Shown piece by piece: positions 9,096 through 26,475 of a DNA stretch of 58,245 nucleotides (positions are counted from its first letter, which is position 1; every line of letters starts with the position of its first letter). This stretch comes from a virus. Taxonomy: Duplodnaviria > Caudoviricetes. Where the stretch lies: positions 1 through 58,245 of IMG/VR virus record IMGVR_UViG_3300025070_000036; one strand, written 5' to 3'. The position numbers and the translations under genes were made by a program. The notes beneath the pieces are model-generated. The model saw only the letters and a list, made by a program, of their open reading frames with translations. It ran no database searches and was not told where the DNA came from.

Positions 9096-9545
9096 TTAAG
9101 TTCCTTTACCGAATGTTACTTTGGTCTTGCGATCATTGAACAACGGCATTCGAGGGTCATTCTCACGCATGAGGTTGTTATCAACAGAACTCATTTGACC
9201 ATCAGTCTGTTGTTGGAAATAGTCGTTTCTTTCATCAACCATTTCTATCGGCGCTTTGCAGAGTAATAAACCACCTATAACTACGTTATCTCTAAAACGT
9301 TCTTGTTCTACAGTAACCATAGAGATTTCTGGGTGATCTTCAGCTCTTACAGGCGTCCAACCTTCACGTAACTTTGACGAGACATTGGTAGCGTCTACTT
9401 GGCCTTGGTTACTTACGCGAATCCATCTGAAGCTATATCCAGCTTGTGGCGCAGGAGACGGTAAAGTCTCTGGGCGTGTCCAAGCCTTCTTGCGGACAGT
9501 TTTTTCACGTTTTTCTAATTCGCGGTCTATGCGATTCTCAGCCAT
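9096..9545 (-). CDS. Conserved head-module protein
   Basis: FRWIR...SKLREGWTPV...IGGLLLCK; lies between scaffold and decoration genes. Confidence 0.7.
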   Translation of the reverse strand: MAENRIDRELEKREKTVRKKAWTRPETLPSPAPQAGYSFRWIRVSNQGQVDATNVSSKLREGWTPVRAEDHPEISMVTVEQERFRDNVVIGGLLLCKAPIEMVDERNDYFQQQTDGQMSSVDNNLMRENDPRMPLFNDRKTKVTFGKGT

Positions 9546-10572
9546 TTGCTTTCCTCATATCTATTGCAACCTGTTTGGCGTATTGTTCGGGTGTCAACCC
9601 CAACTTCTTAGCGATTTGTACCTGAGTGCGTGTCAACGTCACTTTCCGTGCTGCTTGGCTCCGCGTTGCGGGGGCAACCACTTGGGTCTTCTTTCGCTTC
9701 GGTTCAGCATCCTCGAAGTTTTCGGGGAATACTTGACGCATACGAGAGTTAATAGTCTCGTAGTATTCATCACTTTGTGGGCTTACGCCCTGTTTGACAA
9801 GTTTATTGTGCAACCCCAGCGCTAAACTCGTCATTTCGTCGTCGCTTCCAAACCACGTATTGGCTTTTTGCCAGTCTGCAGCTCGGCTATCAACTTGTAC
9901 TGCCGGAGCGGGTTGTTCTGTTTCTACTTCTACAGGGGTTTCTGGTTCCTGTAAAGATGGTAATTTGAAGTTTGCTAGTCTATCAGCCTTTAACTTAGCA
10001 TTGGTTAACTTTTCTTGTGCATCCAATACTGCATCAGAGTCACCAGATTCATACGCTGCTTTATATTCGCGTTTAGCATTTTCTGACTCAATAGAAGCAT
10101 TTTTCTTAGCTTGTTCAAGTAACGCTGTCTGATTCTTACTTACATTACCCTTTAGCTTCTTATTTTCTTCCATAAGTTGCTGAGTGACTCTTTCAAGTTC
10201 TTGACTTTGGCGATGAGCTTCTTCTTTAGCCCTGCGCTCGTCGTGGTAACCTTTGCTAAAATGCTGGATACGTTTACGAACCTTGTCAGAGTAATCTTCA
10301 AGTTCTTCATCCGTAACATCTGCCGGAGGCTCTGAAGCCTTGCGGTTACGATCTGCTTTAGGTGTATCATCTACAACCTCCACTTCAAAGTCGTCTTCCG
10401 AAGTTTCCTCGACTTTTTCCTTAGCTTTTGGCTCAGGAGTCTCTTCTACTTCCATGAAGTCTTCTTTAGTTTTCTTGCCGGATATATCAATTTCAACTGA
10501 ACCAGAATCTTCAATATCTAGTTTGTTGTCCTCTGGCTCCGGAAATTCAAATTCTACTTTCTGAAATGCCAT
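9538..10572 (-). CDS. Capsid scaffolding protein
   Basis: Acidic coiled coil; C-terminal LTRTQVQIAKKLGLTPEQYAK helix-turn-helix; position between portal and capsid. Confidence 0.75.
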   Translation of the reverse strand: MAFQKVEFEFPEPEDNKLDIEDSGSVEIDISGKKTKEDFMEVEETPEPKAKEKVEETSEDDFEVEVVDDTPKADRNRKASEPPADVTDEELEDYSDKVRKRIQHFSKGYHDERRAKEEAHRQSQELERVTQQLMEENKKLKGNVSKNQTALLEQAKKNASIESENAKREYKAAYESGDSDAVLDAQEKLTNAKLKADRLANFKLPSLQEPETPVEVETEQPAPAVQVDSRAADWQKANTWFGSDDEMTSLALGLHNKLVKQGVSPQSDEYYETINSRMRQVFPENFEDAEPKRKKTQVVAPATRSQAARKVTLTRTQVQIAKKLGLTPEQYAKQVAIDMRKANG

Positions 10573-11145: not shown

Positions 11146-13626
11146 TTATGACTCCTTTTTAGGTTTTTGTTTTGATTGCATCATTCTAGCAGTTTCAAGA
11201 CCGATCTTGTTGCGTTCGGCACGCCCTGCCTGTTCTAACTTAATACCTTTTTCTTCTGCTTCTATCGTAAGTTCTGCTTGATCTATCTTGACGCGTTCGG
11301 CGTCTAACATAGCAGAGGTGAGGTCTTTAGCTTTCTGCAGTTTTAGTTTTTCTTGTTGCAAGGCGCTATCTGCTTGGTCTTTTTGTGCTTTGCGTTGCTC
11401 TTCAGCTTGTTTGATCTGCAGCTCTGCCTGTTTCATCTGTATGATTGGGTCTTGCTGTTGCTGTTGAGCTTTCTGCTGCGCGGCTTGTTTCTGGTTAGCC
11501 TGCGTTAGTTGCTTGCCTGCGTCTGCAACCAGACGTGACAGTTGTACTTCCATATCCTCGTCCATCTCCTCGTTTGGAGCCGGTAGTGGTACACCAAGCT
11601 TCTCTTCGATCTTGGTGCGATATGAGAACCCTAAGTGTTCGGCAATGTGAGCCTGTAGCGAAGCCATGATCTGTTTGGCCTGTGGGTTCTGTCCGATCAT
11701 CTGAGCCATCATAGGGTCTTGCATGAACGAGGTATGCGTAGCTATGTGTGCCTCATGGTCTTGGTAGATAAACGCTTTTACCGGCTTGCCTACTAGGGCA
11801 TCCATATTCTCGCTTATCGGATCGGTTGGTTTTGCGTCGTCCTTAGTTGGAACGAGTTTGTCAGCGTTCTTCACGCCCAATACTTCTATCATCTGGCGAT
11901 GTAGCTGTGGTAAGTCGTATATCTGTGGTGCTTGCGACGACATCTGCAGGACAGTCTGATACTGTACCACACGTTGCGCCATAGTCGAGTTATTAGGGTC
12001 ACTGACAGGGATCACGTCCACCATCATGTAATCTTCCCTTTTAGCTCCTACCTCGCCTCTAGCGGGTATATAAGCGTACTCTTCAGGGGCATACTCTGCC
12101 ATGATTGCTTTGAGTAGTTTAAACTCTTGCTTCATCGCGTAATGTACGCGTGCTTGCACCGCAGCCATAGGTTTTAGTGTGCGCTCTAGTAAGGCTAGTG
12201 TAGTACCCACAGGAGCGTTAGCAGACATGTCAGAGATGTCCATATCGCTTATAGCACCTAGTCGTCGTCCTTCAGTAGTAATCTGATTGAGAAGCGCTAG
12301 GAGCGTCTGTGAAGGCTCTTTGTAAGGTAGCGGCATGATGTTGTCACGGATTGACCCTGACGGCACGTCTACGTCCTTAAATTCACCCGGCTCGATAGGT
12401 GTATCATCTCCCTTGATACGCAATCCACGGGACTTTAACCCTCCCGGGAGGTTGGAGAGCGTACCCGCGTCTACGAGTTGACGTATCAAGGAAGTACCGG
12501 CACGGGCGTACCCACCGATAATATGTATCAGGCCAAGGCCATAAAACCCAAATCCCGGTACATAGTTGTAGTGGACGAAGTGCTGGCGCTTGAGTGTGAG
12601 AGGGTCACCCTCCTCGTAGTTTCTACGGACCGCCAGCACTTCTCCACTTCCACGCTCAATCGTGACGACATATGGTCGAGCAATCCCATCCTCGTCATCA
12701 ATACCTTCTATAAGGAGGTCGGCGTGTATTTCGTAGATAGCGTAGCGGTCATCATCAGTGAGCGAATAGCCCCCTTCTTCCGCTTTCTTCTCTTCGATGT
12801 CTGTGTGGTAAGGCTCTGGCTCCCCAAGGTCTATGTCTCTATAGAACTCTGCGGCCTGTAGCTTCTTCAATTCATTCTTAGTTTTACGCATTACGTGTGT
12901 TACACGCTCTGCAGACTCAATATTCGACGCGCCGTAAGGCACAATCACGTCTTCTGCTGAGATATAAATAGCAGCTTGACGCCCTAAATTAGGGTCAAAA
13001 TACACCTTTTTAAACGCAGAACCTGCTAAACCAAGGCTATACAGCATACGTTCATGTTCTGGTCGGTACTCAACCATGTTTTCAGTCAATTCGTAGTTCA
13101 TATCGGCCATAACACGGGCAGCCGCTTCGTCTTTTTCCTTGGATTCTACCCCAAGTATCTTAGTTTTTACTGGTCCAGCCGCTGGCATGGTCTCACTCAC
13201 GGTCTCAGCTTGGAACCTTATAGCTGCTTCAGCTAAAACAGTAGAGTTTACGCCACATGCACCCTCCCAAGGCTCGGTACGTTCCTCATATTTGAAGCCC
13301 AACACGTCTAAACCTTTAACGAACGTATCTGCCCAGTCCTTACGACCCTCAATATCGGCCTTTACTTGCCCAACAAGCTCACCTGACAGCTCATCAAGGG
13401 CATCTTCACTCATAGATTCAGCTAAATTACCACCAAACTCAGTGAAATCACCCTCCATCCCGGGCATTATGGTTATCTCCATGCTCCCATCGGACAGAGT
13501 TACTGACTCTGGATCAACAATCTCAATCTCCATTTCAGGGATTTCCATCTCTTCCATGCCCTCGAGGTCACCTTCTAAGTCTTTTAGCCCCAGTGGAGCA
13601 GCGTATAGTCCTTTTTCAATAGCCAT
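11146..13626 (-). CDS. Portal protein with long Q/K-rich C-terminal coiled coil
   Basis: Follows TerL; LAGSAFKKVYFD, PGFGFYGLG, LRQLVDAGTLSNLP-like motifs. Confidence 0.88.
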   Translation of the reverse strand: MAIEKGLYAAPLGLKDLEGDLEGMEEMEIPEMEIEIVDPESVTLSDGSMEITIMPGMEGDFTEFGGNLAESMSEDALDELSGELVGQVKADIEGRKDWADTFVKGLDVLGFKYEERTEPWEGACGVNSTVLAEAAIRFQAETVSETMPAAGPVKTKILGVESKEKDEAAARVMADMNYELTENMVEYRPEHERMLYSLGLAGSAFKKVYFDPNLGRQAAIYISAEDVIVPYGASNIESAERVTHVMRKTKNELKKLQAAEFYRDIDLGEPEPYHTDIEEKKAEEGGYSLTDDDRYAIYEIHADLLIEGIDDEDGIARPYVVTIERGSGEVLAVRRNYEEGDPLTLKRQHFVHYNYVPGFGFYGLGLIHIIGGYARAGTSLIRQLVDAGTLSNLPGGLKSRGLRIKGDDTPIEPGEFKDVDVPSGSIRDNIMPLPYKEPSQTLLALLNQITTEGRRLGAISDMDISDMSANAPVGTTLALLERTLKPMAAVQARVHYAMKQEFKLLKAIMAEYAPEEYAYIPARGEVGAKREDYMMVDVIPVSDPNNSTMAQRVVQYQTVLQMSSQAPQIYDLPQLHRQMIEVLGVKNADKLVPTKDDAKPTDPISENMDALVGKPVKAFIYQDHEAHIATHTSFMQDPMMAQMIGQNPQAKQIMASLQAHIAEHLGFSYRTKIEEKLGVPLPAPNEEMDEDMEVQLSRLVADAGKQLTQANQKQAAQQKAQQQQQDPIIQMKQAELQIKQAEEQRKAQKDQADSALQQEKLKLQKAKDLTSAMLDAERVKIDQAELTIEAEEKGIKLEQAGRAERNKIGLETARMMQSKQKPKKES

Positions 13627-13637
13627 TGCTAATCCTT

Positions 13638-15203
13638 TTAATAATATCCGCCTCGGCGTCGTTTAAAGAACCGTTCTTCTTCTGGTTCGTCACTAGGTAA
13701 TCTGATAAATCCGCCCTGCCTAAACCGCATCAGAGCCATAACTGTAGAGTCCACGAGGTCATCATTACTCATAAATGGAAATCCTGCAATCTCTTCGACC
13801 ACTTCTTCAGCCCACCGTGTCTCTGGCACCCAGCAAATCCCAGATGCTACTATGTCTGCAACGGAATTAAGTCTAGCTAACTTATCTCCTGACCCCCTAT
13901 GTGGCGTGTACTCCGATACTGGCAAACCCATACGCCGCATCTCTTGATACAAGGCTACACCAGAACTTTTCTTCTCCACAATAAACGAATCAGGTTCCCA
14001 GTCGTGGTACTCTTCCATCGCAAGTTGTTTAAGTTCTGGGAACTCTATACGACGTTTTATACTATTTAACAATATAATATTGTAAGCTTCGGTCTCTTCG
14101 TTCAAGAAAACACCCCATGTAGTAAGTGCTGTGAAGTCTGCACGGTTATGTTTCTCGGCTGCCGCATCAAGCGACATGATAACATATTCACACGGAGGTG
14201 GTGAGTCGGGTATCCACTTGTTCCACCACTCCCGCTTGACCATAGCGGCCTCTTCGGTAGTGGGTTTCTGTTGATATTGGGAGTTCCATTGGAACACAGG
14301 CATTGATGCTTTGGTACGCAGTAAGGCTTCTAGGTCAAAGAACTCAGGCCATAGCGGTTTCTGTACAGTCTTTTTAGTTTTCTTATCTTCTATATCTAGT
14401 ATTGCAGGGAACTCGACCACATTATACTGGTCAGCTCGCTCATTTTTGCCCATATCACGCACCACTCGACCAGTTAGATCGTCTAAATGCCAACGTGTCT
14501 GTATAATTGCAACACGACCCCCGGGCATCAAACGTGTACGCGCACCGAATGTAAACCACTCATAGGCTTTCTCAAATACACCAAAGTTCCCGTTAATTAC
14601 ATCTTGCTCAGAATGTGGATCGTCCACAAGCAGTAAGTCAGCGCCACGCCCAGCCAGAGCAGAACCAATACCACACGCATAATATTCTCCCCCGACATTT
14701 GTATTCCACCTTCCTGCTGATTTACTATCTTGTGCTAATTTTACTGTAGGGAATATAGATCGGTACGCTTCCATAGCTATTAAGTTACGAACTTTACGTC
14801 CAAAATCCACCGCTAGGTCTGTCGTGTGTGAGACCATCATAACTTTCTTATCTGGGTTCCTACCTAAGAACCATGCTGGAAAGAAGATAGACACAAGCTG
14901 TGACTTACCATGTCGTGGTGGAATGTTGACACATATACGGTCTTCATCCCCAGATTCAATCGCCATAAGCATGTCTGCAAGGATTCTGTGGTGCTTTCCC
15001 ACTATGAACTCCGGCATCATTAGCTTACAAAACTCTATTAGGTCATCATATGCACCCTTATTAACGGCTCTGACGCTGAGTTCATCGACCATACGGTCAA
15101 TCTCAGCAACTTCTTCCTCACTAAACGAGTCTAAGTTGGCCAACATGACCTCAATCTCAGCTTCATCAAAGGCAAGAACGTCAGTCGTCATCATCAAACC
15201 CAA
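13638..15203 (-). CDS. terL: Terminase large subunit (true start probably ~15194)
   Basis: NIPPRHGKS Walker A, LLLVDDP Walker B, QTRWHLDDL, RNase H-like SLDAA...DFTA...DDLVDS. Confidence 0.95.
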   Translation of the reverse strand: MGLMMTTDVLAFDEAEIEVMLANLDSFSEEEVAEIDRMVDELSVRAVNKGAYDDLIEFCKLMMPEFIVGKHHRILADMLMAIESGDEDRICVNIPPRHGKSQLVSIFFPAWFLGRNPDKKVMMVSHTTDLAVDFGRKVRNLIAMEAYRSIFPTVKLAQDSKSAGRWNTNVGGEYYACGIGSALAGRGADLLLVDDPHSEQDVINGNFGVFEKAYEWFTFGARTRLMPGGRVAIIQTRWHLDDLTGRVVRDMGKNERADQYNVVEFPAILDIEDKKTKKTVQKPLWPEFFDLEALLRTKASMPVFQWNSQYQQKPTTEEAAMVKREWWNKWIPDSPPPCEYVIMSLDAAAEKHNRADFTALTTWGVFLNEETEAYNIILLNSIKRRIEFPELKQLAMEEYHDWEPDSFIVEKKSSGVALYQEMRRMGLPVSEYTPHRGSGDKLARLNSVADIVASGICWVPETRWAEEVVEEIAGFPFMSNDDLVDSTVMALMRFRQGGFIRLPSDEPEEERFFKRRRGGYY

Positions 15204-15971: not shown

Positions 15972-15989
15972 TTCGGGCAGTTGCCCGAA
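15972..15989. repeat. 18-bp palindrome copy 1 (TTCGGGCAGTTGCCCGAA)
   Basis: Read directly; in the divergent intergenic region. Confidence 0.95.
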
Positions 15990-16031
15990 TGGTATTTAAT
16001 GCTGTTTTGTTTGTTTTTATGGGTATACCTG

Positions 16032-16060
16032 TTGAATGGTGTAACATCTTATGGCATAAA
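16032..16060 (+). promoter_or_regulatory. Possible sigma70-like early promoter TTGAAT-17-CATAAA
   Basis: Correct spacing and a TGG before the -10 like the other early promoters; weak -10. Confidence 0.35.
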
Positions 16061-16113
16061 TAACTTATTGGAACGCCACAATGGATAGCCAAGGTTCTTG
16101 AAAGGAACATATT

Positions 16114-16746
16114 ATGTCAAAGACTACTAAAACAACTAAGACTACAGTAACCGCATTAGAAAAGCTTGGTGCAGGTGCAGAGACTATTGGAGCATTCGAA
16201 GCAGGCGCGTTGGTTAAGATAGGCCAAGCGGCAAAAGGGGCAGATGATGTTATCAACCCGCTAATTCAAACTATGTACACCAACGGAATACGTGCTAACG
16301 ATTGGAAAGCAAAAGCGGGATTGCCTGCAGGTTCTAAAATACCTGCTGAACATACTAAAGCTTACCAAGAGCGTCTTGCATTTTTTGGCCAAGGTGTTTG
16401 GAGCGTAGCAGATAAGGTGGCACTAAAACAGCCTGCACCAAAAGTAGGCGACTTCAAAACAAAAGGTGATTTTCTAGCGGCAAAAGCAGAACGCAAAGCA
16501 TTACAAGACAAACCATCAACCAAGATGAAAAACCTTGCAAAACGTTTTGCCACACTAGCCAAGAATGACCCCGATAACAAAGAGGTCAACGGTGCTAATG
16601 ACAAAGCGACGGCGATTGAAACACTAGGAAAGAAAATTGCAGAGTGTATTAAGTTACTACAAAGCGACCGACCATTTCCAGATACGTTTGAACATGATAT
16701 GGCATGTTCAACTCTAATCGCCTACAAAAATACATACATCAAATAA
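16114..16746 (+). CDS. First early gene; basic Ala/Lys-rich hypothetical protein
   Basis: AAAGGA RBS, 210 aa, own terminator; no recognisable family. Confidence 0.8.
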   Translation: MSKTTKTTKTTVTALEKLGAGAETIGAFEAGALVKIGQAAKGADDVINPLIQTMYTNGIRANDWKAKAGLPAGSKIPAEHTKAYQERLAFFGQGVWSVADKVALKQPAPKVGDFKTKGDFLAAKAERKALQDKPSTKMKNLAKRFATLAKNDPDNKEVNGANDKATAIETLGKKIAECIKLLQSDRPFPDTFEHDMACSTLIAYKNTYIK

Positions 16747-16753
16747 TACTACC

Positions 16754-16788
16754 AACCCCAGAGCCAAACGGTTCTGGGGTTTTTCTTT
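16754..16788 (+). terminator. Rho-independent terminator
   Basis: ACCCCAGAGCC-AAAC-GGTTCTGGGGT then TTTTCTTT. Confidence 0.85.
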
Positions 16789-16796
16789 GTCCAAAA

Positions 16797-17103
16797 TTCG
16801 GGCAGCTGCCCGAAACATTTGATACCAGTTCTCTATCAGCGGTACGCATTACATGTTGCATCTGCATACTGCATGTGATAGCAAGTCATTACATTGCACC
16901 ACAATGCCTCACTAGACCCACTTCGGTGGGTCTTTTTTTATTCGGGCAACTGCCCGAAAGTTATGATACCTGTTCCCAGAGTAGTGTTGCGCCTAACACG
17001 TTTAGTCATGTTCCAATGGGGTTTGCATATAAGATGTCACCATATTACACTTCGGGCAACTGCCCGAAACATTTGATACCAGTACCCAGAGTAGTGCTAC
17101 GCC
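16797..17103 (+). repeat. Three ~50-bp direct repeats (16797, 16941, 17051): palindrome copies 2-4 plus (ACATT)TGATACCWGTWCYC...
   Basis: TTCGGGCAGCTGCCCGAAACATTTGATACCAGTTCTC; TTCGGGCAACTGCCCGAAAGTTATGATACCTGTTCCCAGAGTAGTG; TTCGGGCAACTGCCCGAAACATTTGATACCAGTACCCAGAGTAGTG. Confidence 0.95.
16914..16939 (+). terminator. Rho-independent terminator inside the repeat cluster
   Basis: AGACCCAC-TTCG-GTGGGTCT then TTTTTT. Confidence 0.85.
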
Positions 17104-17105
17104 CC

Positions 17106-17341
17106 TAAGTCATTGAAAACAAACAAATGTTCCAAATGTTCCAAGCTTGTTCCAAGCAAATCGGGCGTAAGTCATTGAAAACAAACAAATGTTCCAATGT
17201 TCCAATAATATTTATATATATATACTCCTAAGTTTGGAGAGTAAGAGAGAGGGTCTCTGCCCTAAAAACCACTTCTCAGATTTAGACATATACCTTTGGA
17301 ACAAAGGAACTTTGGAACATTCTTTTAAAATCAATGGGTTA
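17106..17341. other. Putative replication origin: TGTTCCAA iterons, AT-rich tract, IHF-like sites
   Basis: 30-bp direct repeat at 17106 and 17168; TGTTCCAA at 17128, 17137, 17148, 17190, 17198; inverted at 17296, 17312; AT tract 17204-17224; AATCAATGGGTTA at 17329 matches WATCAANNNNTTR. Confidence 0.55.
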
Positions 17342-17410
17342 CATACATACACAACGTCACACGATGTCACAAAGCACCAATCACCACGAGACACCACAAT
17401 TCCCAATTAC

Positions 17411-17439
17411 TTGACATTGCCTACTATATGTGGTAATAT
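17411..17439 (+). promoter_or_regulatory. Strong sigma70 early promoter TTGACA-17-TAATAT with extended TG
   Basis: AATTAC TTGACA ttgcctactatatgtgg TAATAT. Confidence 0.8.
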
Positions 17440-17519
17440 GTTATATGGTTGATAGGTAACAGCCCAACCAAGTCCCAATACCAACGTTACCACTTCCATC
17501 TTTCATTTAACTTTAACCT

Positions 17520-17537
17520 TTCGGGCAACTGCCCGAA
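17520..17537. repeat. Palindrome copy 5, followed by GGAGA RBS and ATG 17554
   Basis: TTCGGGCAACTGCCCGAA tacatGGAGAtacactATG. Confidence 0.95.
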
Positions 17538-17553
17538 TACATGGAGATACACT

Positions 17554-17784
17554 ATGCAACAAACAGTAACAGCCAGAGGTTTCGCTTGGAACTCAAGCAC
17601 ACGTACGTATTCAAATGAGGTACGTTTCGAAGCCCCAAACCTAATCGCCGCCAAGCGGTGGGTTGAAAGTAAATATCTGCAACTCGAGAACTTATCCATA
17701 TTGCAGACAAATGAAGAGTATCTACTACAAAGCTTACTCCTTCATTCTCCCGTGCAAGCTGTAACAAATGAGGTGATCGAATGA
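17554..17784 (+). CDS. Hypothetical early protein (start MQQTV at 17554)
   Basis: GGAGA RBS; ATGA overlap with the next gene. Confidence 0.65.
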   Translation: MQQTVTARGFAWNSSTRTYSNEVRFEAPNLIAAKRWVESKYLQLENLSILQTNEEYLLQSLLLHSPVQAVTNEVIE

Positions 17785-17984
17785 GTAAGAATGTTTGCGA
17801 TTGCTGTGGCGATACATTCTCAGTGCGCCGCGCAAAACTTGGATACACAGTGTGTTTAGATTGCGGTGACAATCAGGCGCAAAGCCAACGTGCAAGTTGG
17901 TGCGTAGTACCGCTTCCCAAACAAGGCTATACACTCGCCACTCGTAAAGAAGATTTGTTGTATCTTAACCAAAAACCACGATAG
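17781..17984 (+). CDS. TraR/DksA-like C4 zinc-finger protein
   Basis: CDCCGDTFSVRRAKLGYTVCLDCG fits CxxCGxxIxxxR-x7-9-CxxC; GAGGTG RBS. Confidence 0.6.
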   Translation: MSKNVCDCCGDTFSVRRAKLGYTVCLDCGDNQAQSQRASWCVVPLPKQGYTLATRKEDLLYLNQKPR

Positions 17985-17990
17985 GAGATT

Positions 17991-18359
17991 GTGATGAAAT
18001 TCGAAAACTACAGTGTAGTGAAATGCCCTATGGGTATAGCTATCAAACCTAACAATGGTGACAGCGATTTAGAAGTGACCTTAACTATAGAAAATGATAC
18101 TCTATGTGTAACTTTGCACGCACACGATAATGATTGGTGTGGCCCTGACCACATCGTAAGTGAAATCCAACACCCAATCAAATCAGCCCACGACGAGCGT
18201 AAGGCTAAAGAAGAAGCTTCTCGCCAACGTATCCAACAGTTTAGCAAAGGTTATTACGATGGTTGGAACAGTGAAGATTTTAAATGTGACAAATGCGGTG
18301 AGCCGTTAGGAGCAGATGATCTTGATGAATGTGGTGATTGCCACGACAATACACAATAA
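17991..18359 (+). CDS. Hypothetical protein with C-terminal zinc ribbon and a scaffold-derived insert
   Basis: AGGAGA RBS; CDKCG...CGDC; HDERKAKEEASRQRIQQFSKGY insert. Confidence 0.7.
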   Translation: MMKFENYSVVKCPMGIAIKPNNGDSDLEVTLTIENDTLCVTLHAHDNDWCGPDHIVSEIQHPIKSAHDERKAKEEASRQRIQQFSKGYYDGWNSEDFKCDKCGEPLGADDLDECGDCHDNTQ

Positions 18360-18397
18360 TACACATAACAACGCGATATACCACAGAACTGAATTAC

Positions 18398-18426
18398 TTG
18401 ACATTCCTCGCTACCTGTGGTATATT
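18398..18426 (+). promoter_or_regulatory. Strong sigma70 early promoter TTGACA-17-TATATT with extended TG
   Basis: AATTAC TTGACA ttcctcgctacctgtgg TATATT; same context as the 17411 promoter. Confidence 0.8.
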
Positions 18427-18465
18427 ATATGTATGGGTCGAACACCCTGAATCTTTTCAAACCCT

Positions 18466-18483
18466 TTCGGGCAGATGCCCGAA
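18466..18483. repeat. Palindrome copy 6 with RBS header
   Basis: TTCGGGCAGATGCCCGAA caacaaacGGAGActactATG (18502). Confidence 0.95.
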
Positions 18484-18501
18484 CAACAAACGGAGACTAC
18501 T

Positions 18502-19485
18502 ATGACAGAACAAAATACGCAGATCGATATTGAAGACTATATCGCGTCCTCGATACACGACGAACTCAATTCTCAGAATACTGCCTCACAACAAAAAGCA
18601 CTCGCAGGGTTGATTACTGAAGCACCAAGTATATCTTCCGCGGCTATGATCGTTGACTTCAATGCTAGTGTATGGACAGCACGTAAGAAAGACATGAAAG
18701 CGTCCGACGATATTGCAGCTATGAATGGCGCTGATGTAGGTATCGCTGATGTACGTAAGAAGTTACTAGGTAACTGTGACGAGCTGATCGCAGTACAGAA
18801 GTTTGCGGCTAACGTACGCAACATACACTATAGTATGACATTACCTTGGTCGGACAATGGGTCTCGCCTACTGACCACGCAACAATACTTCAAGTACAAC
18901 GAAGTTATGAGCCAACTACAAACAGAGTTTCATACTCTTGTTGATAGTTTCTTACAGGCGTACCAATGGGAAGTATCCAAAGCGCAAGCCAAGTTGGGTG
19001 CTATGTTCAATCGTGACGAGTATCCGACAAGTGAAGCTTTGCAAGATAAGTTTCGGTTTCGTGTCTCGTACATACCGCTACCTGACAGTGGTGATTTCCG
19101 TATTGACATTGGCAACGAAGCCTTGGAACAAATACAATCCCAATATCAATCGCATTACACGCAAGCTATCAACTCAGCTATGTCTGATCTATGGCACAAG
19201 TTACATGATAACCTCGTAACACTTGTTCGACAACTCGACGTTAATGAAGAGGGCAAGGGCAATCGCTTGTATGATACTGTCTTTGATCGAGCTATCGAAC
19301 TGGTATCGATGTTGGGTACGTGTAACGTGACAGGCGACAGCCAAATGGAAGCCATGCGCAGAAAACTAGAAGATGCGTTCTATGGACTAAACCTTGATCA
19401 AATCAAGAACTCACCGAGCTTGCGTGAAGATACACGCAGTAAACTATCAGAAGCAATCGCCGCGCTACCAAGCTTGGATATGTAA
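18502..19485 (+). CDS. DUF3150-like helical protein (start 18502; the track gives 18475)
   Basis: SVWTARKKD...TLPWSDNGSRLL...EYPT...KFRF pattern; directly upstream of the AAA/VWA pair. Confidence 0.6.
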   Translation: MTEQNTQIDIEDYIASSIHDELNSQNTASQQKALAGLITEAPSISSAAMIVDFNASVWTARKKDMKASDDIAAMNGADVGIADVRKKLLGNCDELIAVQKFAANVRNIHYSMTLPWSDNGSRLLTTQQYFKYNEVMSQLQTEFHTLVDSFLQAYQWEVSKAQAKLGAMFNRDEYPTSEALQDKFRFRVSYIPLPDSGDFRIDIGNEALEQIQSQYQSHYTQAINSAMSDLWHKLHDNLVTLVRQLDVNEEGKGNRLYDTVFDRAIELVSMLGTCNVTGDSQMEAMRRKLEDAFYGLNLDQIKNSPSLREDTRSKLSEAIAALPSLDM

Positions 19486-19493
19486 TTTAACCT

Positions 19494-19511
19494 TTCGGGC
19501 AGTTGCCCGAA
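19494..19511. repeat. Palindrome copy 7 with RBS header
   Basis: TTCGGGCAGTTGCCCGAA caacaaacGGAGAaagactATG (19531). Confidence 0.95.
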
Positions 19512-19530
19512 CAACAAACGGAGAAAGACT

Positions 19531-20622
19531 ATGCACAACGCAACACAAATGTACGCACTAACCCTTGATCAGTGTGTCAAATCAATCGCCGCAGTGGGTA
19601 CTAAACGTACTATACTTATGCAAGGTGACATGGGTGGTGGCAAATCATCTACATTGCACACACTATCAGCGATGTTTCCTAACCATGTACCATGTTACTT
19701 TGATTGCACCACGAAAGACCTTGGTGACTTGAACTTACCTAACATGGCAGTGATGAATGAGAAGGGCTATGTTACCTTTGTACCTAACGAAGAACTAGGT
19801 GCGCACCTTGGCAAGCCTGTCATTATTATGATTGACGAACTAGGTAAAGCTAACCCTGCTGTTAAGAACGCACTCTTACGTGTGATGCAAGAACGTACAG
19901 TTGGTAGTATCAAGTTACACCCTGACAGTATTGTGTACGCCACAACGAACAAAGGTGCAGAAGGTGTGGGTGACTTGCTTCAACCACATGCACGTAATCG
20001 CATATCAACAGTGATTGTTCGCAAGACCGATCATATGGACTGGATTGAGTGGGGTATCAACAACAATATCGACCCTACTATACTTGGTTGGGTCAAAGAT
20101 AACCCGCAGTTGTTTGCCGCGTTCGAAGATGTAAAAGACCCGTCTGAGAACCCATACATATTCCACCCAAAAGAACAGCGAGCCGCGTTTGTTACACCTC
20201 GTTCATTACATGCGGCCTCTGACATCTTACACGTACGTGATCAATTCGACGACCAGACACTTACGGCTCTACTGATGGGTACTATCGGTGATCGCGGTGC
20301 GATGGACTTGATGGCGTTTGTGAAACTGGCTGATCAACTACCAAGCTTACAGTCTATCAAAGACGACCCGATGAATGCGATTGTTCCTAATAGTGCCGCC
20401 GCTGTGTGTATGGTTGTGTATCGTACACTTGCCGCGTTGGAAAGTACGTGGGTCAATGCGTGGATGGATTACATGCCTCGCCTCGATACAGAAGCACAAG
20501 GTATGTTCGCCAATGGTGTACGTGCGCCTAAGTATTCAAAGCAATCTATGGTTATGACTAACAAGAAATTTACCAAGTGGGCTATGGATAACAACTACAT
20601 GTTTGCCGCAGACAAGAAATAG
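19531..20622 (+). CDS. MoxR-like AAA+ ATPase
   Basis: Walker A GDMGGGKS, Walker B IIMIDE, sensor-1 ATTN, Arg finger NR, sensor-2 TPRS. Confidence 0.88.
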   Translation: MHNATQMYALTLDQCVKSIAAVGTKRTILMQGDMGGGKSSTLHTLSAMFPNHVPCYFDCTTKDLGDLNLPNMAVMNEKGYVTFVPNEELGAHLGKPVIIMIDELGKANPAVKNALLRVMQERTVGSIKLHPDSIVYATTNKGAEGVGDLLQPHARNRISTVIVRKTDHMDWIEWGINNNIDPTILGWVKDNPQLFAAFEDVKDPSENPYIFHPKEQRAAFVTPRSLHAASDILHVRDQFDDQTLTALLMGTIGDRGAMDLMAFVKLADQLPSLQSIKDDPMNAIVPNSAAAVCMVVYRTLAALESTWVNAWMDYMPRLDTEAQGMFANGVRAPKYSKQSMVMTNKKFTKWAMDNNYMFAADKK

Positions 20623-20632
20623 GAGAATGGAA

Positions 20633-21058
20633 ATGAGTAAATATAAACCGTGGACTGACGCAGATGATGCGGAACTGGTATTGATGCGCGAAGCACGCAC
20701 GCCAACGAAAGAAATCGCAATCGCATTGGGTCGAACACCCTCGGCTGTGATGAACCGTATAAGTGCAAAGGGTATACCCTATGGTAAGTTATACACAAAG
20801 GAACAACTAGAAGGTTTCTCACAAACTAAGGCGCGTGACCTAGAAGAACTTACGTTCCGTGAAGTTGTGGATACAGCGTTTGCCAAGCACGAGATCGAGT
20901 TTGGTGCGCCTGATAGAAAGTCCGAAGACCTTGAAAGGTCTAAGCCAAAGGCTGACACATATGGTTTCGGGCGGTTGCCCGAAATGCTTAATCAAATGGA
21001 AAGAGACATCAAGCGTAAACCACAATGGTTCAAAGCTATGATGTGGTGGAGGAAGTAA
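20633..21058 (+). CDS. GcrA/Myb-like N-terminal HTH DNA-binding protein (start MSKYKPW at 20633)
   Basis: WTDADDAELVLMREARTPTKEIAIALGRTPSAVMNR resembles the GcrA N-domain WTxERxxxL...IAxxLGxxxRNAV; AGGAGA RBS. Confidence 0.6.
   Translation: MSKYKPWTDADDAELVLMREARTPTKEIAIALGRTPSAVMNRISAKGIPYGKLYTKEQLEGFSQTKARDLEELTFREVVDTAFAKHEIEFGAPDRKSEDLERSKPKADTYGFGRLPEMLNQMERDIKRKPQWFKAMMWWRK
20966..20983. repeat. Palindrome copy 8 (one mismatch), inside the HTH gene
   Basis: TTCGGGCGGTTGCCCGAA, encoding FGRLPE. Confidence 0.9.
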
Positions 21059-21059
21059 C

Positions 21060-22340
21060 ATGTTATCAATAGGTAAAACACTTACACCCGAACAGCGGTT
21101 ATCGAAAGCCGTTGTTGACATCATGGGTAAAGCCCATGCGTTGTCTGGTGTTATTATGATCGGTGATCGTAGTATCGAATACAATGAAGATAAAGTACCA
21201 ACAGCTTGCACTAATGGACGTGACGAGTGGTATGGTGCTAAGTTTATTGAACCGCTAAACGATGCGCAACTAAGGTTTCTTGTGCTACATGAAGTGTATC
21301 ACAAACTGTATCGACATCTGACAACGTGGCAACACCTGTACAGAATACACCCACAGTTGGCTAACATCGCGTGTGATTATGTAATCAACGTGAAGATCAT
21401 GGACGAGTTCAGCGAGAATGGTTGGGTCGAGATGATCGAAGGTGGTTGCTACGATGTGAAATATCGTGGGTGGGATGCCGCCAAGGTATTCTGGGAACTA
21501 CACAAGCAGTTACAAAAACCACCCCGGGGTGGCGGTGGTTCGGGTTCACCTGATAACGAAGCACAAGATGGTGATGGAACTACCCCTGAGCATTCAACTG
21601 GTTTAGAAAACACAGGAGTAGGTGATCTACCCCAAGGGTTCGATGCGCATGATTGGGACGGTGCGGAAGAAATGACCGCAGACGAACAGCGTGAACTTGC
21701 TCGAGAGATCGACGAAGCAGTACGCCAAGGTGCATTGGTTGCAGGTAAGATGGGTAGCGGTGGTAGCCGTGACCTAGAAGAATTGCTACAACCCAAAGTG
21801 GATTGGCGCGAAGTGTTGCGTGAGTTTGTGCAAGATACATGTGCAGGGTCTGACTATTCAACATGGAAGAAACCAAACAGACGCTATCTAAGCTCTGGCA
21901 TATACATGCCTACTGGTATCAGTGAACAAGTAACATGTTTAGCAGAACACAATGACATGTCTGGTTCAATCGGTGCGCGTGAGCAACAGATAATGATTAG
22001 TGAATTGGTCGGTATCTGTGAAACGGTCAAGCCAGAAGAACTACACGTAAGTTACTGGGACACCGAAGTGACTGGGTATGAGAGGTATGACAACCACGAA
22101 CTACATACAGTGGCAGAACGTACCACACCTGTAGGTGGCGGCGGTACATGTGTTGAATGTGTGCCTGAGTACATGAAGAAAAACAATATCAATCCACAAG
22201 CGTCTATCGTGTTTACAGATGGTGATTTGTATGGCGGTTGGGGCGAGTGGGATCACCCTGTGTTGTGGGTGATTGTCGATAATGAAGGCGCACAGCCTAC
22301 ACATGGTAAAGCGTTACACGTATCCTCGGGAGATTTGTGA
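21060..22340 (+). CDS. Metallopeptidase-VWA protein (DUF2201-like)
   Basis: PTACTNG, HEVYH zincin motif, NIACDYVIN; MIDAS DMSGS...GGGGT...FTDG. Confidence 0.85.
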   Translation: MLSIGKTLTPEQRLSKAVVDIMGKAHALSGVIMIGDRSIEYNEDKVPTACTNGRDEWYGAKFIEPLNDAQLRFLVLHEVYHKLYRHLTTWQHLYRIHPQLANIACDYVINVKIMDEFSENGWVEMIEGGCYDVKYRGWDAAKVFWELHKQLQKPPRGGGGSGSPDNEAQDGDGTTPEHSTGLENTGVGDLPQGFDAHDWDGAEEMTADEQRELAREIDEAVRQGALVAGKMGSGGSRDLEELLQPKVDWREVLREFVQDTCAGSDYSTWKKPNRRYLSSGIYMPTGISEQVTCLAEHNDMSGSIGAREQQIMISELVGICETVKPEELHVSYWDTEVTGYERYDNHELHTVAERTTPVGGGGTCVECVPEYMKKNNINPQASIVFTDGDLYGGWGEWDHPVLWVIVDNEGAQPTHGKALHVSSGDL

Positions 22341-22531
22341 TGAGCAAGATTGGTAACTATGTAGTAGGACTACAGGAGCAAGAGGTGGACGAGCTAGAGC
22401 AGATGTTAGATGATGTATTCTACAAAACATTTGGTCGTCGTCCCCTCAAGGGTGAAGAACTCAAAAAGCTACAGCGTCGTACCTACATGCCCGAGCTAGA
22501 TGATGATGGTAAGTTTCGGAGGGAAGAATGA
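22337..22531 (+). CDS. Hypothetical protein
   Basis: GGAGA RBS; overlaps with both neighbours. Confidence 0.6.
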   Translation: MMSKIGNYVVGLQEQEVDELEQMLDDVFYKTFGRRPLKGEELKKLQRRTYMPELDDDGKFRREE

Positions 22532-22770
22532 CCTTCTGGCACATGCTCATAATATCTTACGCAGTCATACCTGACAGCGGTGTGTTTATCACAAAGGAAT
22601 ACGTGTACAAAGATTACCACACATGTATCCAAGCAAGTGATGAAATGTACCCTGCAATATACGCCACGTACAAAGACAGCATGGCAAGTTGCGTAAAGAC
22701 GAGTCTTATATCTGGTGGTTTGAAGCCACGGTTAAGACCTAAAAACTTAGGGGGCAATCGCGCAAGATAA
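22528..22770 (+). CDS. Small hypothetical protein, hydrophobic N-terminus, two Cys
   Basis: ATGA overlap; MTFWHMLIISYAVIP. Confidence 0.6.
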   Translation: MTFWHMLIISYAVIPDSGVFITKEYVYKDYHTCIQASDEMYPAIYATYKDSMASCVKTSLISGGLKPRLRPKNLGGNRAR

Positions 22771-22862
22771 GTATCGAAACAACAGACTGCCCGTGTGCGG
22801 TTTAAACAGATACTCATCTTGCTTGCCCCTTATAAACAACCTGACAAATACGTCAATAAACT

Positions 22863-22880
22863 TTCGGGCATCTGCCCGAA
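22863..22880. repeat. Palindrome copy 9 with RBS header
   Basis: TTCGGGCATCTGCCCGAA caacaaatGGAGAataactATG (22900). Confidence 0.95.
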
Positions 22881-22899
22881 CAACAAATGGAGAATAACT

Positions 22900-23964
22900 A
22901 TGACTATGGTATACACAAATTTTAAATCTTTCGCGGAAGTGGAGGCACACTACGACAGTATCAAACCACTGGTATCAAAGTGTCACCCACGCGAACAAGA
23001 CATTCGACCCATCGGAGATCGCAAACGAAAACACGAACGTATTAAAAAGATCAATCGTAATTGCTACGTGATGATGGACGGGTACTACAGCGGTGATGAT
23101 GTGTTTCGTTGGTGGTTTCTTAATAAAGACACCGCGATAAACATAACCGAGAAAGAGCTTATTAGGTTAGCTCCTATCGTGTGGCGTAGACACAAGGACG
23201 GTACAGAAACTGTCAAGTTTCGTAATGGTACAGGCCAAGGTCTACACAATGGTAGGTACTCGTTCATAAGACGTAATACACCTAGTGGTATGTACTTTAA
23301 TATATCCAATGGTAAACAGTTTGTTAATGGAGTGTATCTCGCAAAAGGTAGCTCAATCACCAAAGATGATTACACCAGAAAACCTGACGATAGTGGTTAT
23401 GGAAGTTGGTGGCAATCTTACGTGAAGGAATGTACATACCGTGATGATGGGTGTGCTGTTACGTTTAAACTGGTAAAAGTAGATGGTCGAATTGCGCCAG
23501 ATTGGGAAGTAGTAACTGGCGGTAAGCCGTTACCCAAACCACCTAGACAAGTAGTGGACAAGAAAGCAAAGGCTTCTTTGAAAGATCACATAGTTAAGTT
23601 CCGTGAATGGGGTATGACTATGTATCCGATGTTACCAAAAGATACGTACGAGTACGAACAACGTATGCGTAACGAGACCAAAGAATACGTAGCGGATAGA
23701 ATGGGTAACCCTCATTACTATGCTTGGAGTTTACTAAGTATCTTTCTTGATCACCCTACAATCACACGCGAGATTGTAAAAGATGAACAACACCCACTAC
23801 GTCTGCACTTAGCGTATGGTATATTATCAGATTACATGGAGCATACCCTACGTATGGGTGAAGAACAGGGCTTAGACGACAAAGAGATACAGGCAAGAAT
23901 AATGTCTGCATTCAACCATAAAATCAATCGCACATGCGGTTTCTTATCAACAGTGAAAGGTTAA
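22900..23964 (+). CDS. Hypothetical early protein (start 22900; the track gives 22795)
   Basis: RBS header; long ORF with no recognised family. Confidence 0.8.
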   Translation: MTMVYTNFKSFAEVEAHYDSIKPLVSKCHPREQDIRPIGDRKRKHERIKKINRNCYVMMDGYYSGDDVFRWWFLNKDTAINITEKELIRLAPIVWRRHKDGTETVKFRNGTGQGLHNGRYSFIRRNTPSGMYFNISNGKQFVNGVYLAKGSSITKDDYTRKPDDSGYGSWWQSYVKECTYRDDGCAVTFKLVKVDGRIAPDWEVVTGGKPLPKPPRQVVDKKAKASLKDHIVKFREWGMTMYPMLPKDTYEYEQRMRNETKEYVADRMGNPHYYAWSLLSIFLDHPTITREIVKDEQHPLRLHLAYGILSDYMEHTLRMGEEQGLDDKEIQARIMSAFNHKINRTCGFLSTVKG

Positions 23965-23968
23965 AACA

Positions 23969-24892
23969 ATGGGTTATAAACATAAGACAGTAGCGGAAGC
24001 TACAGTGGAGAGTGAAGAGTACGTCGAACGTTCGCGTAGGTATAATCAGCCTACTCAGGGAAAACCAGAACTTGTAGAATTTCGAACGGCTATCGAGAAC
24101 AACCACATCAAGACTATGCACCGTACTGCAAACACAGCATACGTATACATTGAAGGTGAACAGATGGTGCTTGGTTGGATTGGCTATGGAGACTTTCAGT
24201 CTACAATAAGTGGTGCTGATAAGTATGTAGTATATGCAAGAAACATACGTAACATGCGACACGTCGAAGGGACAGATGAATACTTCATGCGTTCAGCACT
24301 ACGTTTAGATAAAGCTATCAAGAACTGTAAGGCCAACTTGATACGGTATACCTCGGAGGAAACGGGTTGTGCATTGGCAAGGCAACCCAAACGAGATTTT
24401 GCAAGGTTATCCCGTGAAGCTGATGAAGCGTACATGGAGGTGCGACGAAACATTGGGTTGGTAGATAGGACAAATACCGAACTGGGTTTGGAGCTTATAA
24501 CATTAGTAAAAAATGGTTACGTGTTCAGACAACCAGAGCTTCACGAGAACATAAGTAAGCTATCGCACTTGAAAGATCAGTACAACAAACACTCAAGAAA
24601 CAACCCACGCCCTATGGACTTTGTGCGTATATACAAAAACCCACGCGAAGAGTTACGTGCTGACGTAGTAAAACTTGTTAACGTGAATGCGTATACCTCA
24701 TGGTCTGATAACAAACCGGTAGCGGATAGGGTATCGGGTAAAGATATGTACCTCGCGGAAACACTACCCGAAAGTATCTTAGGTAAGATTGCAGTTATGG
24801 CTATGTGTGAAGACGGGCAGTTTGTTGAAGACGTTGGCTACAAGGTTGACGACACTATGTTCTACTTCTACCCAGAAGAACCTACTACGTGA
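23969..24892 (+). CDS. Hypothetical protein
   Basis: 307-aa ORF; C-terminal LPESILGKIAVM...VEDVGY resembles the next gene. Confidence 0.8.
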   Translation: MGYKHKTVAEATVESEEYVERSRRYNQPTQGKPELVEFRTAIENNHIKTMHRTANTAYVYIEGEQMVLGWIGYGDFQSTISGADKYVVYARNIRNMRHVEGTDEYFMRSALRLDKAIKNCKANLIRYTSEETGCALARQPKRDFARLSREADEAYMEVRRNIGLVDRTNTELGLELITLVKNGYVFRQPELHENISKLSHLKDQYNKHSRNNPRPMDFVRIYKNPREELRADVVKLVNVNAYTSWSDNKPVADRVSGKDMYLAETLPESILGKIAVMAMCEDGQFVEDVGYKVDDTMFYFYPEEPTT

Positions 24893-25140
24893 GTGTGCTT
24901 GGCGATATAACGTATCACGTACAGATACATAAGCATACTAAACACGTCAATGTATCATCAATAGGTATCGACAGGGTTGACTCGGATGTTTTGCATCACT
25001 ACAATTCTGTAGACGAGCTACCCGAATGGATACAAACTAAGCTGTCGATGCTTATGATGTTAGACCTACCACCTCCACTAAACGATGTGGATGGTGTGGG
25101 TAGTAGGCTAGGCCAGTACACTTACTGGATATATAAATAA
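24889..25140 (+). CDS. Hypothetical protein, resembles the C-terminus of the preceding protein
   Basis: GTGA overlap; DELPEWIQTKLSMLMM...VDGVGSR. Confidence 0.7.
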   Translation: MSVLGDITYHVQIHKHTKHVNVSSIGIDRVDSDVLHHYNSVDELPEWIQTKLSMLMMLDLPPPLNDVDGVGSRLGQYTYWIYK

Positions 25141-25143
25141 CCT

Positions 25144-25161
25144 TTCGGGCAACTGCCCGAA
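25144..25161. repeat. Palindrome copy 10 with RBS header
   Basis: TTCGGGCAACTGCCCGAA actggtatcaacGGAGAattactATG (25185). Confidence 0.95.
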
Positions 25162-25184
25162 ACTGGTATCAACGGAGAATTACT

Positions 25185-25523
25185 ATGACCCCAGAAGCAA
25201 AAGTTAAAAAGACCGCTGTAAAACATCTGAAAGATATAGGTGCTTACTATTTCTTTCCTGCCACTGGTGGCTACGGCAAAAGCGGTGTACCCGACATCAT
25301 AGCATGTTACCAAGGATTATTCTTTGGACTTGAATGCAAAGCAGGCAAGAATACGCCTACACCTCTGCAAGAGAAAAACTTGAAAGAGATCAACGAAGCA
25401 GGTGGGTTTGACTTAGTCGTACACGAAGAAAACGTACACCAACTGTCTCTGCAAATGGATAAATGGGTAACTATCTGTAACAATACCAACGTAATACCCC
25501 AAGCTGTGAGTGGGCGCGATTGA
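25185..25523 (+). CDS. VRR-NUC nuclease / Holliday junction resolvase-like
   Basis: TPEAKVK...GVPDII...GLECKAG...TPLQ...AGG. Confidence 0.85.
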   Translation: MTPEAKVKKTAVKHLKDIGAYYFFPATGGYGKSGVPDIIACYQGLFFGLECKAGKNTPTPLQEKNLKEINEAGGFDLVVHEENVHQLSLQMDKWVTICNNTNVIPQAVSGRD

Positions 25524-25680
25524 CATAGTTCGCATAAACCTCAGCAGTATGGGCAGGACACTCCAATTTCTGTTTGTAATTCAGCAGAAACCTTTCAAGA
25601 CCTGTGACCATACCGACTAGGCCACGTACGGCTAGTCCTATACTCTGCGTATGGGCATTAAATTAAAGGAGATCACATAC

Positions 25681-25866
25681 ATGACGCGTGAAGAAGCCGA
25701 AGACAACTATCGAATAAAGTGGGAGAAACAAATAAAAAAAGATATGGCAGATAACTCTGCACTACGTGCGAGACAAAGACCTATTAGACCCCTCGGTGCA
25801 AGCCAAGAAGGTGGGTCTAAAGGAGGCAAAGCAAATAAGAAAAGACCTTATGTCTCTATCCGTTAG
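25681..25866 (+). CDS. Small basic hypothetical protein (start 25681)
   Basis: AAGGAG RBS before ATG 25681; GGSKGG. Confidence 0.55.
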   Translation: MTREEAEDNYRIKWEKQIKKDMADNSALRARQRPIRPLGASQEGGSKGGKANKKRPYVSIR

Positions 25867-26035
25867 TCACTGCCCTCACTGTGTTAGGAAGTTAGAAGTA
25901 ATAGATTCACGTCCACACTTTGCTTATGGCTTTCCAACAGTAAGACGTAGGCGTGCGTGTACTAAATGTGATTTTAAAATAACAACCATAGAGTTACCGA
26001 TAGAACTAGGTAACGAAATCTTTGAAGATGAATAG
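25850..26035 (+). CDS. Stand-alone NrdR-like zinc ribbon (no ATP cone)
   Basis: CPHC...VIDSR...VRRRRACTKCDFKITTIE matches the NrdR N-terminus CPxC..VxDSR..IRRRRxCxxCxxRFTTxE. Confidence 0.75.
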   Translation: MSLSVSHCPHCVRKLEVIDSRPHFAYGFPTVRRRRACTKCDFKITTIELPIELGNEIFEDE

Positions 26036-26044
26036 GAGAACAAC

Positions 26045-26473
26045 ATGAAAAAATCAAAAGCAGATAAAATCTGGGCTTATAAAATAGCAAACCCATCAGC
26101 TACAAACAGAGAGGTAGCTAACGCATCTGGTGCGCACGTTACGTATGTTGCATCGCTTATGCGTAAGACAGGTACGCCCAAAGAAATACTGGAAGCACCA
26201 AAGTCGCCTAAACGTGGTGACATCTTAGACACTGCTAAAGAATACGTGACTAAAGATCGTGCATCTGATCACGGGGATATGGAAGATAACTTTGAGATGA
26301 TTGCAGATTTTTGGTCAACGTATTTAGATAGGCGTATAGTGGCATATGACGTGGGTGCTATGATGGCGTTATTAAAAGTAGCGCGTATTAGATCAAACCC
26401 TAAACACCCTGACAACTGGGTCGATGGTGCAGGGTACATGGCATGTGGTGGTGAGATTGCAGGTAAACGCTAA
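26045..26473 (+). CDS. N-terminal HTH-like region plus DUF6378-like domain
   Basis: DRASDHG...NFEMIADFW...MMALLKVAR...DNWVDGAGY; AGGAGA RBS. Confidence 0.7.
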   Translation: MKKSKADKIWAYKIANPSATNREVANASGAHVTYVASLMRKTGTPKEILEAPKSPKRGDILDTAKEYVTKDRASDHGDMEDNFEMIADFWSTYLDRRIVAYDVGAMMALLKVARIRSNPKHPDNWVDGAGYMACGGEIAGKR

Positions 26474-26475
26474 AC

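Follow-up and report, generated by a model that had tools for sequence, protein, structure and literature searches.

An in-frame, permuted copy of a scaffold-like gene segment in a small early gene of a marine phage

A small early gene of a marine phage contains a copy of a 66-nt segment of the scaffold-like gene, with the two parts of the segment in swapped order. In the scaffold-like gene the segment reads A-B (10272 to 10207, minus strand). In the early gene, about 8 kb away and on the opposite strand, the copy at 18189 to 18254 reads B-A, and it is translated in sense and in frame as 22 codons (Table 1). The first-pass annotation had described this permuted geometry, one 66-nt period flanked by CACGA and TACGA, and the sequences read exactly so. 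The best explanation, which we hold to be probable, is a templated (filler-type) insertion, guided by microhomology, into the hypervariable linker of the early gene. The event is of a known kind; new here are its in-frame and permuted form, its retention, and its later recombination.

All 58,245 bases of an IMG/VR virus record, with an estimated completeness of 95%, make up the stretch of DNA that we analyzed (the window). The structural genes of this marine phage are on the minus strand, in the order terminase, portal, scaffold-like gene, and capsid. The block from about 16.1 to 35 kb is coded on the plus strand; small orphan genes come first, and genes for an ATPase, a DNA polymerase, a helicase, and a primase come after them. 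The early region and the scaffold-like gene had no blastn match among 50,697 phage records. The early ORF is the third and last small ORF between two sigma-70-like promoters, a placement that fits early expression by the host RNA polymerase. At least nine copies of a conserved hairpin, TTCGGGCA-NN-TGCCCGAA, lie between early genes from 15972 to 29260 of the window (for example, at 16941 to 16958, 17520 to 17537, 19494 to 19511, and 25144 to 25161), and they are often followed by CAACAAACGGAGA and a start codon. Relatives have a second hairpin, TTTAGGGA..TCCCTAAA, in a like role. Both recurrent hairpins probably serve as punctuation for termination or RNA processing. Large structural genes contain tandem repeats at 1861 to 2247 and 46372 to 46899 (both minus strand; 66-nt period and 186/57-nt periods), which are probably repeat domains of tail or fibre proteins.

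Table 1. Coordinates of the donor, the recipient, the insert, and neighboring features in the window
Feature	Position	Strand	Remarks
Major capsid protein gene	7542-8450	-	
Scaffold-like gene	9538-10572	-	344 aa; between the portal and major capsid protein genes
Donor-type segment A-B	10207-10272	-	RIQHFSKGY-HDERRAKEEAHRQ; inside the predicted long helix
Donor B	10245-10207	-	CACGAC...CGCCAA
Donor A	10272-10246	-	CGTATCC...GGTTAC
Portal	11146-13626	-	
Terminase	13638-15203	-	
Sigma-70-like promoter	17411-17439	+	TTGACA-17-TAATAT, 10/12, TG; also direct repeat D12; 5' of the three-ORF unit ending with the early ORF
Small accessory early ORF	17994-18359	+	121 aa from ATG 17994, GTG 17991 possible; N-terminal beta domain, helix, CxxC...CxxC tail
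Native linker	18165-18188	+	EIQHPIKS-A; in register with scaffold A (RIQHFSKGY), weakly similar; inverted repeat I1 extends here at low identity
B copy	18189-18227	+	HDERKAKEEASRQ; 35/39 identical to the window's own scaffold gene, 37/39 to the L006/L086 allele
A copy	18228-18254	+	RIQQFSKGY; 24/27 identical; abuts the end of B, novel B-to-A junction
Target flank	18255-18260	+	TACGAT (YD); echoes the CACGAC that opens the insert; TACGATG is also the flank in insert-free alleles
Zinc-ribbon-like C-terminal tail	18261-18356	+	WNSEDFKCDKCGEPLGADDLDECGDCHDNTQ; one of several alternative tails in the family
Sigma-70-like promoter	18398-18426	+	TTGACA-17-TATATT, 11/12, TG; directly after the early ORF

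The B and A copies are the two longest among 452 inverted-repeat pairs in the record. In a self-blastn comparison, B scored 54.5 bits (E = 1.3e-7) and A scored 43.0 bits (E = 3.9e-4). The best off-diagonal score in 20 dinucleotide shuffles was 39.1 bits, and none of the 20 reached the value of B or A. The other strong matches within the window were regulatory hairpins, promoters, and tandem repeats, and no second capture of this kind was found there by self-comparison. The insert was also present in independent data. Logan contigs of 435 nt from runs X10 and X11 (2014, different studies, neither marked as a potential source of the record) match 17955 to 18389 with no differences, and a 321-nt contig from run X13 is identical to 18088 to 18408. 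Scaffold-gene contigs of X10, X11, and X13 align to B and then A in swapped record order. In X13 record 21, bases 27 to 66 fall on 18188 to 18227 and bases 1 to 26 fall on 18228 to 18253, which displays the permutation directly. The same B-to-A junction occurs in metagenome contigs L087, L088, and L089, all from other projects, and in database proteins P0003, P0006, and P0007. An assembly chimera, which the first-pass annotation had named as a possible pitfall, or a chance or ancient shared motif, is refuted by the independent contigs that span the insert, by scores above all shuffles, and by the 89 to 92% nucleotide identity of the copy to clade-specific scaffold alleles. We give these explanations practically no credence.

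The sole match of the scaffold-like gene was phrog_28737, which is annotated "unknown function," and the gene has no Pfam family. In an AF2 model, the protein has a disordered acidic N terminus, a very long helix (residues 88 to 176), a second helix (residues 179 to 200), and a C-terminal helix (residues 315 to 343). The gene has the position of a scaffold gene between portal and capsid, and its product has the character of a scaffold protein, namely, a long helical protein with a C-terminal helix-turn-helix-like end; the protein is a member of no annotated scaffold family and has no demonstrated assembly role. The name "scaffold" is a reasonable one from position and predicted structure, with no annotation behind it. 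Distant relatives with 25 to 47% identity are found in marine podophages, including Pelagibacter phages HTVC027P and HTVC023P and Roseobacter phages CRP-901/902. The A-B segment is present once, in A-B order, in all 85 scaffold records (83 distinct contigs), and it is the most conserved stretch in the N-terminal half of the protein. Residues V98, K100, R101, I102, Y109, H110, E112, R113, R114, K116, E117, E118, A119, and R121 are invariant among 21 aligned homologues, and the segment is kept even in the homologue of that alignment that is only 44% identical. Therefore, the scaffold arrangement is old.

The recipient had been read in the first-pass annotation as an ORF of 122 aa from 17991. The reading itself stands; the start is most likely the ATG at 17994, because homologues start at MKFENY. 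The early protein has no Pfam or PHROG family. A tblastn search with it against phage records gave chance-level matches only, Foldseek on its AF2 model found nothing at an E value of ≤0.001 in BFVD or PDB, and the ESM Atlas held no informative neighbor. The AF2 model, from an alignment of 24 sequences, has a mean pLDDT of 69 and contains five strands (residues 6 to 61), a helix (residues 65 to 89), and a low-confidence Cys-rich tail. The helix coincides with the insert (pLDDT of about 70 to 80). The insert is thus predicted to form or extend a single exposed α-helix between the beta domain and the zinc-ribbon tail.

Conservation in the early-gene family is high over the N-terminal 58 or so residues. 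Beyond E-I-[QK]-H-[SP]-[IM]-K, the family diverges into at least six alternative endings. Junctions cluster in this linker, where at least six tails and two types of N-domain occur in shuffled combinations, and the whole ORF is precisely present or absent. Contigs from X10, X11, and X16 join 17984 straight to 18360, and these co-occurring variants lack the ribosome site and ORF (17985 to 18359) or have a replacement of them. Such joints point to a cassette-like accessory gene that is dispensable in nature. The "LEAS[TR]*" tails of L096 and L102 might be taken for remnants of B, a reading that we rejected because their DNA leads directly into the ribosome site and start of the next gene.

B is present in 4 of the 24 DNA homologue records (the window, L087, L088, and L089), and the 20 records without B include the most divergent members. 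Homologues without the insert keep the EI[QK]H[SP]IK core of the native linker. Set beside the A-B order of every scaffold record, this distribution bears out the direction of transfer that the first-pass annotation had assumed, and it indicates that the scaffold gene is the donor and the early gene is the recipient. The annotation had also proposed a comparison with homologues, and the 22 residues are indeed absent from relatives. P0004 and P0005 combine the window-type zinc-ribbon tail with the L087-type N-domain and are exactly 22 residues shorter, reading ...IKPVHDD-WNSED... (protein level only). At the DNA level, L093 is an insert-free allele whose genomic neighborhood matches in both the upstream gene and the downstream promoter, and it reads ...AAA-TAC GAT G...; the sequence AAA TAC GAT G is likewise found in the insert-free alleles L086, L092, L097, and L098. 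L093 also contains a relic of the zinc-ribbon tail (L093:2226-2265; CDKCG-DCHDNTQ*) past a premature stop, with an internal deletion between two TGYGGTGA repeats. This relic records tail decay in the short "YDEVQKNYY" forms.

The size of the insert depends on the empty site chosen for comparison. It is 66 nt against P0004 and P0005 (at the protein level) and 72 nt against the L093-type alleles, and the 72-nt reckoning leaves two codons, TCA GCC, unexplained. P0004 and P0005 may have arisen by a later 66-nt deletion between the CACGA and TACGA repeats. In that case, the order of events in the early-gene family could be reversed: the long form would be older in the zinc-tail branch, the alleles that are 22 residues shorter would be CACGA/TACGA deletions, and the capture from scaffold to early gene would still have happened, only earlier. 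In line with such a history, the codon pair that precedes HD (SA, SV, or PV) is confined to forms that contain HD, a repeat deletion predicts HDG-W, one base from the observed HDD-W, and the same linker has other small repeat-mediated indels, at ATC MAA CAT. However, the rarity of B among the homologue records speaks against it. Moreover, only 5 to 7 of the 66 nt separate the insert from scaffold alleles in the clade of the window, whereas the scaffold alleles, which differ chiefly at synonymous sites (pN 0.065), stand apart at pS 0.74. Therefore, the capture is recent, whichever early-gene state is older. No 66-nt deletion joint was reported in the four runs examined, a result of little weight, as contigs drop rare variants. 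We regard the reversed polarity as unlikely, with a real minority chance of being correct.

The scaffold alleles also allowed the source of the insert to be narrowed. Among 46 distinct scaffold A-B alleles, the nearest to the window insert was that of L006/L086, with 2 differences in the 39 nt of B and 3 in the 27 nt of A; the scaffold protein of L006/L086 is 97% identical to that of the window. The window's own allele was second nearest (4/39 and 3/27), and other alleles had up to about 20 differences. The junction between the end of B and the start of A is identical in all insert-bearing alleles, and the window and L087 share one derived A sequence (27/27 identical). The early B of L088 has 4 differences in 39 from the window's scaffold allele and 9 in 39 from L088's own scaffold. 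Therefore, the L088 insert did not come from L088's own scaffold gene and travelled with the early-gene module. These comparisons indicate a single origin of the insert, with a scaffold allele from the window's own clade as the donor, and spread thereafter.

Two variants of B (..KAKEEASRQ and ..[KR]DKEEACRQ) each occur with the zinc-ribbon tail and with the Cys-rich tail. All four combinations exist, and later recombination is therefore needed. As judged from the alleles, the insert would have come to be linked with two types of N-domain and two C-terminal tails through homologous recombination. In the Cys-tail forms the sequence is ...B-CGT ATC CAA CAT-TAC TGT..., and in the insert-free forms it is GAA ATC MAA CAT-TAC TGT. 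We infer that crossing-over in ATCCAACA, between the A head of the insert and the native EIQH, joined the insert to the Cys-rich tail, and that the Cys-tail forms are exactly 22 residues longer than their insert-free partners because of it.

We suggest that the linker received a copy of the 66 nt for the helix that is most conserved in the scaffold-like protein and that the copy started and ended at one donor position, the TAC-CAC boundary between A and B. The insert begins at donor CAC GAC GAG and ends at donor GGT TAC, directly before that CAC, which is exactly one period. The target YAC GAY G resembles donor CAC GAC G. In the proposed event, one whole period would have been inserted as B-A, flanked by CACGA and TACGA, because entry and exit took place at the same homeologous word. 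Given the B-to-A junction, the donor would therefore have been read head to tail. This could have happened by a 66-nt backward jump of the polymerase within the donor, as part of a multi-step template switch. Alternatively, two neighboring donor pieces, of 39 and 27 nt, could have been captured in swapped order at a break, or a transient tandem or circular copy could have been the template.

Two features are those expected of a templated insertion: the genome holds a high-identity donor with the ancestral order, and close relatives hold an empty-site allele. Microhomology at the junctions gave a mixed picture. The outer junctions share YACGA(Y)G at 5 to 6 of 7 positions. The inner B-to-A join (...CGCCAA to CGTATC...) has microhomology of only about 2 nt (CAA/AAA), and this step is poorly explained. 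A tandem A-B-A-B donor was found in none of the 85 scaffold records, an absence with which a transient form is compatible. The B-to-A junction pattern had no matches in IMG/VR, and no longer protein with a B-A region was found, the latter being weak evidence. The native linker, EIQH.IK..HD, lines up in register with scaffold A followed by HD; this likeness may be a chance one that guided the event, or it may be a trace of an older exchange. A DGR-type mechanism was excluded, because the record has no RVT_1 match as a sign of a reverse transcriptase and the differences between insert and donor (C>T, G>A, CA>TC, G>A, T>G, and C>T) are not adenine-directed.

We then looked at relatives by a self-comparison of 94 sequences, that is, the window and all loci of 3 kb or more. 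It revealed two further captures; the other matches were regulatory hairpins, an RBS/gene-start repeat (L095), and a pair of capsid-like paralogues. In L001 and L002, a small Myb/SANT-like early-block protein (L001:12530-12892, plus strand) has a 54-nt (18-codon) in-frame insert, ...FGEPD-QELKELLPGINAL-FGEPD.... The insert consists of about 41 nt, 90% identical, from the start of the capsid protein gene (the LKELLPGLNALFG arm; L001:126-166, minus strand) on the other strand, and then a 14-nt target duplication. L003 and L095 have the same gene without the 18 codons. In L074, a 33-nt insert (14330 to 14363 versus 10496 to 10529) is 97% identical to L074's own scaffold gene, and L073 is without it. 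The L074 insert belongs to a structural-block protein that is basic and GGK-rich, where it is translated in a frame other than that of the scaffold gene (QPIKQRMSPGT). Both captures are plain one-piece linear fragments, with 0 to 14 nt of target duplication. Therefore, a general copying process is economical for the window event too. RNA-templated, sense-biased copying, to which the sense-in-sense orientation of all three captures could have pointed, was dropped as unsupported (n = 3). Two separate observations concern the capsid arm. A 38-aa basic ORF of the window (6229 to 6345, minus strand) begins with MAIARAQ, compared with MAISRAQ in the capsid protein (8421 to 8450, minus strand), and a second gene of L065 (3319 to 3474 versus 12091 to 12246) matches the capsid N-terminal arm over about 156 nt at 72% identity. 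This arm may be a reused module.

The simple form of these captures also bears on one proposal of the first-pass annotation: excision of a 66-nt circle from the scaffold gene and its integration in Campbell style at YACGA. The geometry fits formally, with a one-period permutation and the same short word at both ends. However, the captures in L001 and L074 are linear, and we saw neither a recombinase site nor a circle or joined form. A Campbell substrate needs more than five bases of imperfect homology, and by general DNA mechanics a duplex circle of 66 bp is much too short to close readily. With neither a circle nor a tandem donor found, the simpler captures in relatives point instead to templated or filler insertion, and we judge the excised circle to be very improbable.

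The first-pass annotation had further suggested that the synonymous differences reflect selection on the captured helix. We counted substitutions by the Nei-Gojobori method and compared them by Fisher's test; all counts are small. Between the early copies of the window and L087 there are 4 synonymous differences in 11.7 sites and 2 nonsynonymous differences in 54.3 sites (P = 0.008). The comparison of the L087 copy with the nearest scaffold allele gave a P value of 0.0015, and that of the window copy with the nearest scaffold allele was not significant (P = 0.22). The synonymous excess is real. Its attribution to selection is less secure, because gene conversion from the scaffold genes could yield the same signal from such small counts. 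The insert is best described as a tolerated, possibly constrained helical linker.

If the helix is under selection, it could be a functional mimic, whereby the early protein would show the scaffold A/B motif and bind a partner (scaffold, portal, or capsid) or a host sensor before the late proteins are made. The synonymous excess would agree with this idea, as would the high conservation of the captured stretch in the scaffold protein, the in-frame insert in seven alleles and its movement onto different tails, and the second in-frame capture in L001, which brings the conserved capsid N-terminal arm into a small early-block protein. However, synonymous variation can be imported by gene conversion, and the window copy itself shows no significant excess against the nearest scaffold allele. 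The halves are swapped, so that the native A-to-B surface is only approximated. Most homologues are without the insert, and the whole gene is missing in some co-occurring variants. The out-of-frame capture in L074 suggests a neutral mutational process, and no family or fold match points to a function of the early protein. A complex prediction for scaffold residues 85 to 205 with the early protein yielded no answer (score of 0.00, without controls) and speaks neither way on binding. We consider a selected mimic improbable. The broader idea that small early proteins of this group repeatedly gain capsid-assembly motifs in frame (the scaffold helix here and the capsid arm in L001), and that these are kept since the early copy titrates a partner or host sensor, is quite improbable too.

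The window event can be compared with known systems. In MMBIR, polymerase template switching at microhomology gives templated insertions, as described in PMC8421209. Like the products of MMBIR/FoSTeS or of filler-DNA capture, the insert is a short stretch copied from the same genome, with empty-site alleles, short imperfect homology at the outer junctions, and, in one relative, a target duplication. Unlike those products, it lies in a phage genome and is an in-frame sense copy kept across diverged alleles. It is also circularly permuted and would need an extra jump or a two-piece capture. In the permutation-by-duplication model of circular permutation in proteins, as set out in PMC3320104, B-A would be the remainder of a head-to-tail A-B-A-B trimmed at both ends. 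However, that model concerns whole genes duplicated in place, whereas here 22 codons entered a different gene. No tandem intermediate was found among the scaffold records or in IMG/VR.

Classical phage mosaicism, by illegitimate or short-homology recombination, exchanges genes or modules between phages. The early-gene linker resembles such a system in being a junction hot spot with shuffled tails and N-domains. It differs in that the piece that moved was smaller than a domain and passed from one gene to an unrelated one within a single genome lineage. In a search of open-access papers, we found no account of such an event in a phage.

The insert looks like a DNA-copying scar that was kept, rather than a proven new device. 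It provides a clean, dated example of how phage accessory proteins gain segments, in which the donor, the recipient, the empty sites, and the recombinants are all visible in environmental data. Together with the two simpler captures in relatives, it suggests a regular mutational input: fast-evolving early genes may quite often receive short templated copies of other genes of the same phage. If there is no mimicry, then in-frame similarity between an early and a late gene can be a copying scar and not a sign of shared ancestry or function. If such copies were kept because they imitate assembly motifs, they would be a new source of regulators or decoys. And if an early copy titrated the partner of its motif or a host sensor, the phage's own late genes would offer a natural route to control of assembly timing or to anti-defence decoys.
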